The notes under the pieces were generated by a model. It worked only from the letters and a program-made list of their open reading frames with translations, was not told the DNA's origin and ran no database searches. A program made the translations under genes and the position numbers. A stretch of DNA of 63,345 bases, filler included, from Dugesia japonica (Eukaryota): the NCBI GenBank assembly GCA_001938525.1. It is 6 parts of 6 records of this genome, joined end to end, with 100 filler letters (N's around TTAATTAATTAA, not from the genome) between each part and the next. Parts side by side here need not be neighbours in the genome. Positions count along the whole stretch, not along the records: positions 24,636 to 36,133 come from MQRL01395730.1; 5 more parts are not named here. One strand, given 5' to 3'. Below are positions 27,737 through 28,186 of this stretch, one piece after another (positions within the stretch are counted from its first letter, which is position 1; the number at the start of each line of letters is the position of its first letter).

Positions 27737-28186
27737 ATGATTGCTAATATTAATTATAAAGCTCACTCATCTCAAGAAATCACCAGTTAAATAAAATTTC
27801 CTATCAGTAAACCATCACAAATAGTCGATAAAAGTAGAAAGTATACGATTCTATTCTTTAAATCAGGGAATTGTAGAATCATGGGATGCAATATACCAAT
27901 AGAAATGAAGCATTTACAGTAAGATATTAAAAACATTCAGTTACAATCATAAACTATTGTAGTCAATTTGAATCAATCAGTTAATTTGTAAACATTTGCA
28001 AGAATAACAAAGTGTATGTATGAACCTGAATTATTTCCATCATTGAGGCTTACTAAATACAATCCTATCTGTGTTAATGTATTTGCTAGTGGAAAAGTTG
28101 TTATACTCAATCTTAAGAATTTATATTATCAAAATCAATTTTACAATATAATGTCAGATTTGAACAGTTTAATCGAGAAAATATAA
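27737..28186 (+). pseudogene. Intronless compact TATA-binding-protein (TBP)-like gene, one frame with 4 internal TAA stops
   Basis: MIANINYKAHSSQEITS*IKFPISKPSQIVDKSRKYTILFFKSGNCRIMGCNIPIEMKHLQ*DIKNIQLQS*TIVVNLNQSVNL*TFARITKCMYEPELFPSLRLTKYNPICVNVFASGKVVILNLK..IEKI*. It shows YEPELFP and both TBP-repeat motifs (F.SG...hG). Confidence 0.85.

Follow-up and report, generated by a model that had tools for sequence, protein, structure and literature searches.

The window, by which we mean the whole 63,345-nucleotide stretch of Dugesia japonica DNA analysed, carries on one gap-bounded contig segment the remnants of a Polinton gene cassette, among them a shortened gene for a TATA-binding protein (TBP)-like protein, here termed mini-TBP (Table 1). 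The frame begins with ATG and runs for 149 codons to a terminal stop, with internal TAA at codons 18, 62, 72 and 85; what the first-pass annotation had read there, a frame of about 150 codons with four TAA, the YEPELFP stretch and the repeat motifs ILFFKSGNCRIMGC and VNVFASGKVVILNL, is all present. With the stops read as X the protein matches the TBP profile PF00352 at E 2.8e-13 (50 bits, against a curated cut-off of 22.9), and all 35 matches at E<=1 in a sequence search of the PDB are TBPs or TBP fusions, the best being archaeal (1mp9, 6e-10). The frame is intronless, as had been claimed, aligning over its full length with intact relatives of about 145-155 aa, whereas RNA reads over the window's host ABC-transporter gene skip stretches of 41-51 nt, that is, introns.

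Table 1. Features of the TBP-bearing segment and of the rest of the window, with the basis of each assignment.
Feature	Position	Strand	Basis or remark
Compact (~150 aa) Polinton TBP-like pseudogene, four in-frame stops	27737..28186	+	Frame, Pfam, PDB matches, relatives; fold from intact P0002
ATAAACA box (TATAAACA) before ATPase	27673..27679	-	Within divergent spacer; reversed as viewed from TBP gene
Polinton A32/FtsK-type packaging ATPase remnant, frameshift near 27400, 3 stops	27019..27647	-	tblastn vs L004/L012/L020
ATAAACA box (TATAAACA) before Lys-rich ORF	27029..27035	-	
Decayed small Lys-rich ORF, approximate bounds	26760..26998	-	Position only: matches L012 ORF between ATPase and PZ-like
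ATAAACA box (TATAAACA) before PZ-like gene	26736..26742	-	
Further box, AATAAACA, near PZ-like gene	26709..26715	-	
Remnant of conserved Polinton ORF after ATPase (PZ-like)	26498..26755	-	Weak tblastn, E ~7-9e-4, L004/L012/L020
ATAAACA box (TATAAACA) before integrase region	26468..26474	-	
Further box, AATAAACA, near integrase region	26395..26401	-	
rve integrase remnant, frameshifted, internal piece duplicated	25406..26339	-	Pfam rve E 0.0015; tblastn E 3.5e-30 to L020 integrase
TBP-neighbour gene remnant, likely T7 gp2.5/Enc34-type ssDNA-binding protein	28322..28603	-	HMM family A3, E 2.2e-6
Possible second SSB-like copy, more decayed	28759..29037	-	Weak HMM match, E 0.054; L011 also has two
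Double-jelly-roll capsid, PF21738	279-782	-	Second Polinton type
PZ-like piece	~1719-1927	-	Second Polinton type
pPolB	~5248-7866	+	Second Polinton type
RPB11 exon	9183-9380		
Isolated pPolB C-terminal fragment between assembly gaps	36236-36484	+	
Host ABC-transporter (MRP-like) gene, 41-51-nt introns	45400-53700		

A reassigned genetic code, with TAA read as a residue, was considered for the TBP frame and rejected, because the relatives shown have no Gln column at any of the four stops (0/4) and because X11 RNA reads over the four codons carry another letter (24/24, 19/19, 18/18 and 18/18). The four stops are particular to the window copy. That copy is dead; boxes are still kept in its cassette. 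Over 25700-29300 the X11 reads, from stranded poly(A) RNA, derive from other copies and from both strands, antisense being commoner over the ATPase and integrase; they are mostly less than 95% alike to the window and were left out as evidence for expression of its gene. RNA of this kind, from both strands of other copies, does not point to an active transcription programme, and the antisense-rich RNA over ATPase and integrase possibly consists of silencing-type transcripts.

The TBP gene is divergent from the ATPase, as first annotated; the spacing of about 75 bp given with that claim did not hold, since the ATPase alignment starts at 27647 and the gap is about 80-90 bp. The two genes have decayed to the similar degree described, three stops and a frameshift in the one and four stops in the other. 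Over its C-terminal 125 residues the ATPase is 70-72% identical (tblastn) to those of three TBP-bearing metagenome loci, L004, L012 and L020, which match Pfam Pox_A32. Two hallmarks of Polintons, an A32-type ATPase and an rve integrase, are thus both present as remnants beside the window TBP gene, together with the ORF after the ATPase, which we take to be the one named PZ-like. The further linkage that had been put forward for checking, to pPolB and capsid genes within terminal inverted repeats (TIRs), is not seen around the window gene: none of these was found on the gap-bounded TBP segment, and no TIRs flank it among the 25 longest inverted pairs of this gapped assembly stretch. Part of the integrase (25407-25925) is present twice, as 131-nt copies 98% identical and 388 nt apart; the duplication is interleaved with apparent non-LTR reverse-transcriptase fragments and may reflect an insertion or faulty assembly. 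Tandem palindromes GTT.CCATGG.AAC, which resemble RFX X-boxes, lie at 24810-24981, immediately beyond the integrase remnant.

The gene on the far side of TBP gave no match by sequence search, Atlas search or Pfam. For a model of its intact relative in L006, the top 11 Foldseek rows are Enc34, gp2.5, CP312R or related phage proteins, at Foldseek E 0.1-0.3, with VIA Z values of 8.4, 8.1, 7.6 and 7.2, then 5.5; as modelled, the neighbour is likely a single-stranded DNA-binding protein (SSB) of gp2.5/Enc34 type. The SSB-like genes of L006, L007, L009, L011 and L012 have an apparent intron (GT...AG before the conserved part) that joins them to an acidic upstream ORF. In Polintons of another TBP clade, a PC4/Sub1-type gene (Pfam PF02229) lies near TBP (L051:1302-1790 and L058:524-874). 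A ssDNA-binding neighbour therefore recurs in two unrelated folds, SSB-like with one TBP clade and PC4/Sub1 with another.

Relatives of the window mini-TBP are numerous: 62 of 65 candidates were retained at E<=1e-3, mostly about 145-165 aa long and up to 89% identical, and a profile search brought in some 140 further ones, most of them with the family signature residues. In metagenome contigs 421 stretches encode a relative, and the best 80 were kept as loci. Among the best 28 of these, ten carry core Polinton genes, including all five contigs of at least 4.5 kb; the other 18 comprise 12 with only the SSB-like gene or another recurring ORF and six short contigs with neither. The weaker 52 include six Polintons with more distant TBPs, the TBPs of most of the rest looking cellular or NCLDV-like. 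Metagenome copies of the TBP gene do have pPolB, ATPase, integrase, protease and putative capsid genes as neighbours. One locus, L025, has pPolB, TBP, ATPase, integrase-chromo and putative capsids together, and pPolB, protease and capsid genes stand beside TBP relatives in L025, L014 and L051, the capsid labels resting throughout on position and mutual similarity, as Pfam gave no match. A tRNA-like sequence, spotted by eye, lies between the TBP and ATPase genes at L024:3440-3525. Scanning IMG/VR with the TBP alignment returned three loci, the two inspected both looking NCLDV-like, and ATPase and MCP queries of IMG/VR yielded no TBP-less Polinton of the same type. TFIIB had no Pfam match among the selected ORFs (96 + 50 proteins) of TBP-bearing loci, none of which is a demonstrated complete element. 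The first-pass annotation had envisaged a Polinton lineage with its own TBP-like factor; the element-borne factor stands, on the ten of 28 loci and on the ATPase identity, but the single lineage does not, since the gene is, to judge from these sequences, widespread across Polinton lineages. Selection has evidently acted on the protein, dN/dS being 0.08-0.33 in unsaturated pairs among the 25 closest relatives and pN lower than pS in 120/120 pairs.

For phylogeny we chose 84 rows from more than 300, leaving out near-duplicates and fragments. In the resulting tree, whose branches are long and whose bootstrap had not settled, the window protein falls in a short-linker clade of 29 rows (95/88), itself within groups of 41 (99/91) and 44 rows (100/98) made up only of family or Polinton-context rows. 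All 47 family and Polinton-context rows fall on one side of a 91/84 branch, apart from eukaryotic, archaeal-like and NCLDV-like TBPs. Mini-TBP thus does not group with animal TBP, in a tree from which TRF2/TBPL1 were absent.

The AlphaFold2 model of P0002, an intact natural relative, is a two-lobed TBP saddle (pLDDT 96) in which the C-lobe is complete, N-lobe H1 is short and N-lobe H2 is missing. Foldseek against the PDB gave 44 matches at E<=0.001, and all matches listed are TBP structures, with TMq about 0.7; among viral folds the top BFVD matches are NCLDV TBPs, followed more weakly by models of herpesvirus BcRF1, U58 and the UL87 domain. Part of the first-repeat helix had been noted as missing; the loss is real and more extensive than that, taking in essentially the whole of N-lobe H2. 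The H2 linker, 32-33 residues long in 20 cellular TBPs, has a median length of 19 in the family and is no longer than 22 aa in 58/62 relatives; H2 is largely kept in L024, L025 and L028. The canonical helix bearing the basic patch for TFIIA, TAF1, Mot1 and Brf1 is absent from the mini-TBP model. E96, P97, E98 and F100 are present in 62/62 relatives, so that the TFIIB-contact glutamates are kept, as are three of the four wedge phenylalanines (F41 and F116 in 61/62; the first N-lobe Phe is absent in 62/62). DNA-facing positions have states of the family's own: M49 in 62/62, where Thr is usual, S71 in 61/62, where Asn is usual, and N114 in 60/62. According to the relevant passages of Ravarani 2020 (PMC7221094), it is the C-lobe glutamates that touch TFIIB, and most of the TFIIA/TAF1/Mot1/Brf patch is on N.H2; known viral TBPs are described there as having mostly diverged glutamates and a TFIIB of their own. 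As modelled, mini-TBP would seem built for using host TFIIB while shedding host regulators.

A short box, ATAAACA, was spotted by eye in upstream regions. In a test set that overlaps the discovery genes and whose homologous genes are not independent, it stands in sense orientation within 120 nt upstream of 21/28 late-type genes from ten clade-A loci, against 1.1 expected from Markov shuffles (maximum 5 in 1000); antisense copies and GTAAACA are both at 0. By gene, the box precedes 6/6 ATPase, 3/3 integrase, 3/3 putative MCP, 3/4 putative mCP, 4/5 PZ-like and 2/2 small core-like genes, and is absent upstream of protease (0/3), PLA2 (0/2), the L026 putative minor capsid gene and the L004 PZ-like gene. 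Before other genes it occurs in 4/32 cases (two SSB-like or neighbour genes and two ORFs without assignment), before TBP genes in 0/21, and in loci with other TBP clades in 0/24 genes. The base 5' of it is T in 15/21, giving TATAAACA, C in 5/21 and G in 1/21. Boxes occupy all three frames of preceding ORFs, spacers and divergent spacers, and AATAAACA has a count of 0/28 in the tested set, which rules out ATAAACA as a coding or poly(A) artefact. The window cassette has six sense and no antisense copies in 2037 nt, where 0.95 are expected, a count reached in 1/1000; over the whole window the motif is not enriched (34, against 37 expected).

Other TBP clades are accompanied by other boxes. In two loci with clade-B TBPs (L033 and L051) GTAAGAA precedes 7/13 genes, with sense:antisense ratios of 9:0 and 5:0, and in L068, of a further TBP clade, AYGCAAA precedes 6/9 genes; these boxes B (2 loci) and C (1 locus), each nearly absent from the other TBP-clade groups, were defined after the fact. 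Box and TBP clade change together along the element phylogeny, a pattern that common descent by itself could produce. Loss of H2 does not set box specificity, because the three loci that largely keep the helix have the same box.

The reading that we consider probable is that the window gene is a decayed, Polinton-encoded shortened TBP whose intact versions serve as a late-gene promoter factor. The TBP and SSB genes would be read first, by the host machinery. The mini-TBP saddle would then bind (T/C)ATAAACA, usually about 30-110 nt before the ATPase, integrase, PZ-like and putative capsid genes, and is predicted to prefer it over TATAAAAG or scrambled DNA. An intact C-lobe stirrup (E96, E98) would bring in host TFIIB and hence Pol II, TFIIB of the host being the proposed partner because no element-encoded one was seen. 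Loss of H2 would strip away the basic patch of TFIIA, TAF1, Mot1/BTAF1 and Brf1, and host regulators would thereby be escaped, while the altered N-lobe, with its first wedge Phe lost and Thr changed to Met, would tolerate the non-canonical C at box position 7. We take the second inserting Phe pair to be that of the N-lobe. In TBP the second pair inserts at box step 7/8, as stated in the section available of PMC1935006, and the lost Phe would accordingly sit at the unusual C7. Packaging, capsid and integrase genes would then be expressed. Two roles had originally been proposed for the protein, a promoter-redirecting factor and a decoy; the former appears the better fit to these sequences, because a matching upstream box exists.

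Could a host factor read the box instead, either a Forkhead-type protein or host TBP acting on a weak TATA variant, leaving the element's TBP some other or accessory role? We think this unlikely, though it deserves serious weight. ATAAACA matches the Forkhead consensus, RYAAAYA. A reversed, looser core is moreover enriched before the TBP genes themselves: TGTTT[AT] precedes 18/21 of them and TTGTTT 16/21, where 5.0 are expected and 11 is the maximum in 500. The core is there even when no divergent neighbour follows, and in most loci it lies at about -43 to -67 (27673 in the window; L004-L028). This may fit an orientation-free host factor as well as it fits autorepression. There is, too, a crystal structure of wild-type TBP bound to a TATA variant in which this position is C, in a Hoogsteen pair (PDB 1qn3). 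A host factor sits poorly, however, with the strict sense bias before late genes (21:0), with the lack of GTAAACA, the usual Forkhead variant, with the preferred 5' T (15/21), which gives TATAAACA, and with the different boxes that accompany different TBP clades. In many loci a TCAT[AT] initiator-like motif lies 8-21 nt before the TBP ATG.

A second alternative makes mini-TBP a decoy or dominant negative that soaks up host TFIIB or occupies host TATA boxes and so damps host or defence transcription. A protein that keeps the TFIIB stirrup and has lost both the TFIIA/TAF1 surface and one wedge Phe would suit such a role, but the element-wide, clade-specific boxes would be left unexplained, and the conservation of family-specific DNA-facing residues (M49, S71, N114) suggests a specific site; we regard it as improbable. 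The box might, thirdly, be the promoter of a helper virus or a 3'-end signal, its link to TBP clades reflecting shared ancestry only. Virophages, which depend on giant viruses, share late promoters with them; the clade-B box contains GTAAG, like the baculovirus late motif; and 17/23 boxes fall inside an upstream ORF on the same strand or at its end. Yet some boxes sit in divergent spacers, where no same-strand gene lies upstream (27673-27679, L004, L028), AATAAACA is never seen among the 28 tested genes, and a promoter read by a helper would leave the purifying selection on TBP unexplained, so that we hold this reading to be quite improbable. That a host TBP/TRF retrocopy landed once, by chance, beside a Polinton remnant would account for an intronless, decayed gene but is hardly credible given 62 relatives, repeated linkage to Polintons and a place within a Polinton-context clade (100/98) apart from animal TBP.

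With cellular TBP (PF00352) the element's protein shares the saddle fold, the YEPELFP stirrup with both TFIIB glutamates and three of the four wedge phenylalanines. It differs in its identity of only about 20%, in the missing H2, short H1 and lost first wedge Phe, in the C-lobe Asn to Ser and N-lobe Thr to Met changes, and in being encoded by a mobile element and forming a separate long-branch clade. The late-promoter factor that we propose has a functional likeness in KSHV ORF24, EBV BcRF1 and CMV UL87, viral TBP folds that act on a non-canonical TATA-like late box (TATT) with host Pol II (PMC12529657). ORF24 is, however, big and multi-domain, contacts Pol II directly as one member of a complex of six proteins, and has a model incompatible with TFIIB binding (PMC12529657); the element's protein is no more than a 150-aa saddle, with its TFIIB stirrup intact. 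The trait they have in common is a dedicated non-canonical box before virion genes, seen in sense orientation before 21/28 genes in the Polintons, where its binding is predicted. NCLDV TBP-like proteins likewise have a viral TBP fold and have lost the N-lobe regulator signature, but mostly come with their own TFIIB and conserve the stirrup glutamate to about 40% (PMC7221094, in part), the mini-TBP glutamates being invariant; in the tree mini-TBP stands apart from the seven NCLDV-like rows.

A TBP-like gene in a Polinton-like element has been named before: the abbreviation 'TBP' appears in MELD/adintovirus figure legends (Starrett 2021, PMC8502044; preprint 10.1101/697771), as a legend label that, in the parts available, does not give the carrier element, and no further TBP or TATA passage was found in the accessible main text or in the one supplement searched. 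In the openly accessible Polinton literature searched we found no account of a mini-TBP family or of the ATAAACA box, Polinton papers looked through for mentions of TBP, TATA or promoters had none, and the family is apparently undescribed beyond that label. Virions have not been seen for vertebrate Mavericks, in the portion of the literature available. An encoded TBP with a matching box would supply a concrete late-gene mechanism for control of Polinton capsid and packaging genes, and the box a sequence signature by which to place gene starts and to judge once-complete elements. Mini-TBP itself is a natural deletion experiment on TBP, its saddle having lost N-lobe H2 but not the TFIIB stirrup.

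More broadly, and tentatively, since we put it at slightly short of an even chance, a major Polinton branch may run its own early-to-late switch by means of a minimal TBP, with lineage-private TBP-box pairs (YATAAACA, CGTAAGAA, AYGCAAA), using host TFIIB and Pol II while escaping control by TFIIA, TAF1 and Mot1. If so, these elements would offer orthogonal TBP-promoter pairs made by nature, and their regulation would be evidence for a true viral cycle of such Polintons; if the TBPs of each clade read that clade's boxes, they would show how TBP specificity can change.

Elsewhere in the window, positions 3-9000 hold a second, different Polinton type in fragments. No TBP remnant was found in this heavily decayed region (1-9000), where [TC]ATAAACA occurs 1+1 times, and the pPolB and capsid fragments outside the TBP segment appear to belong to a Polinton type other than that of the segment. 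Mariner and gypsy remnants are also present.
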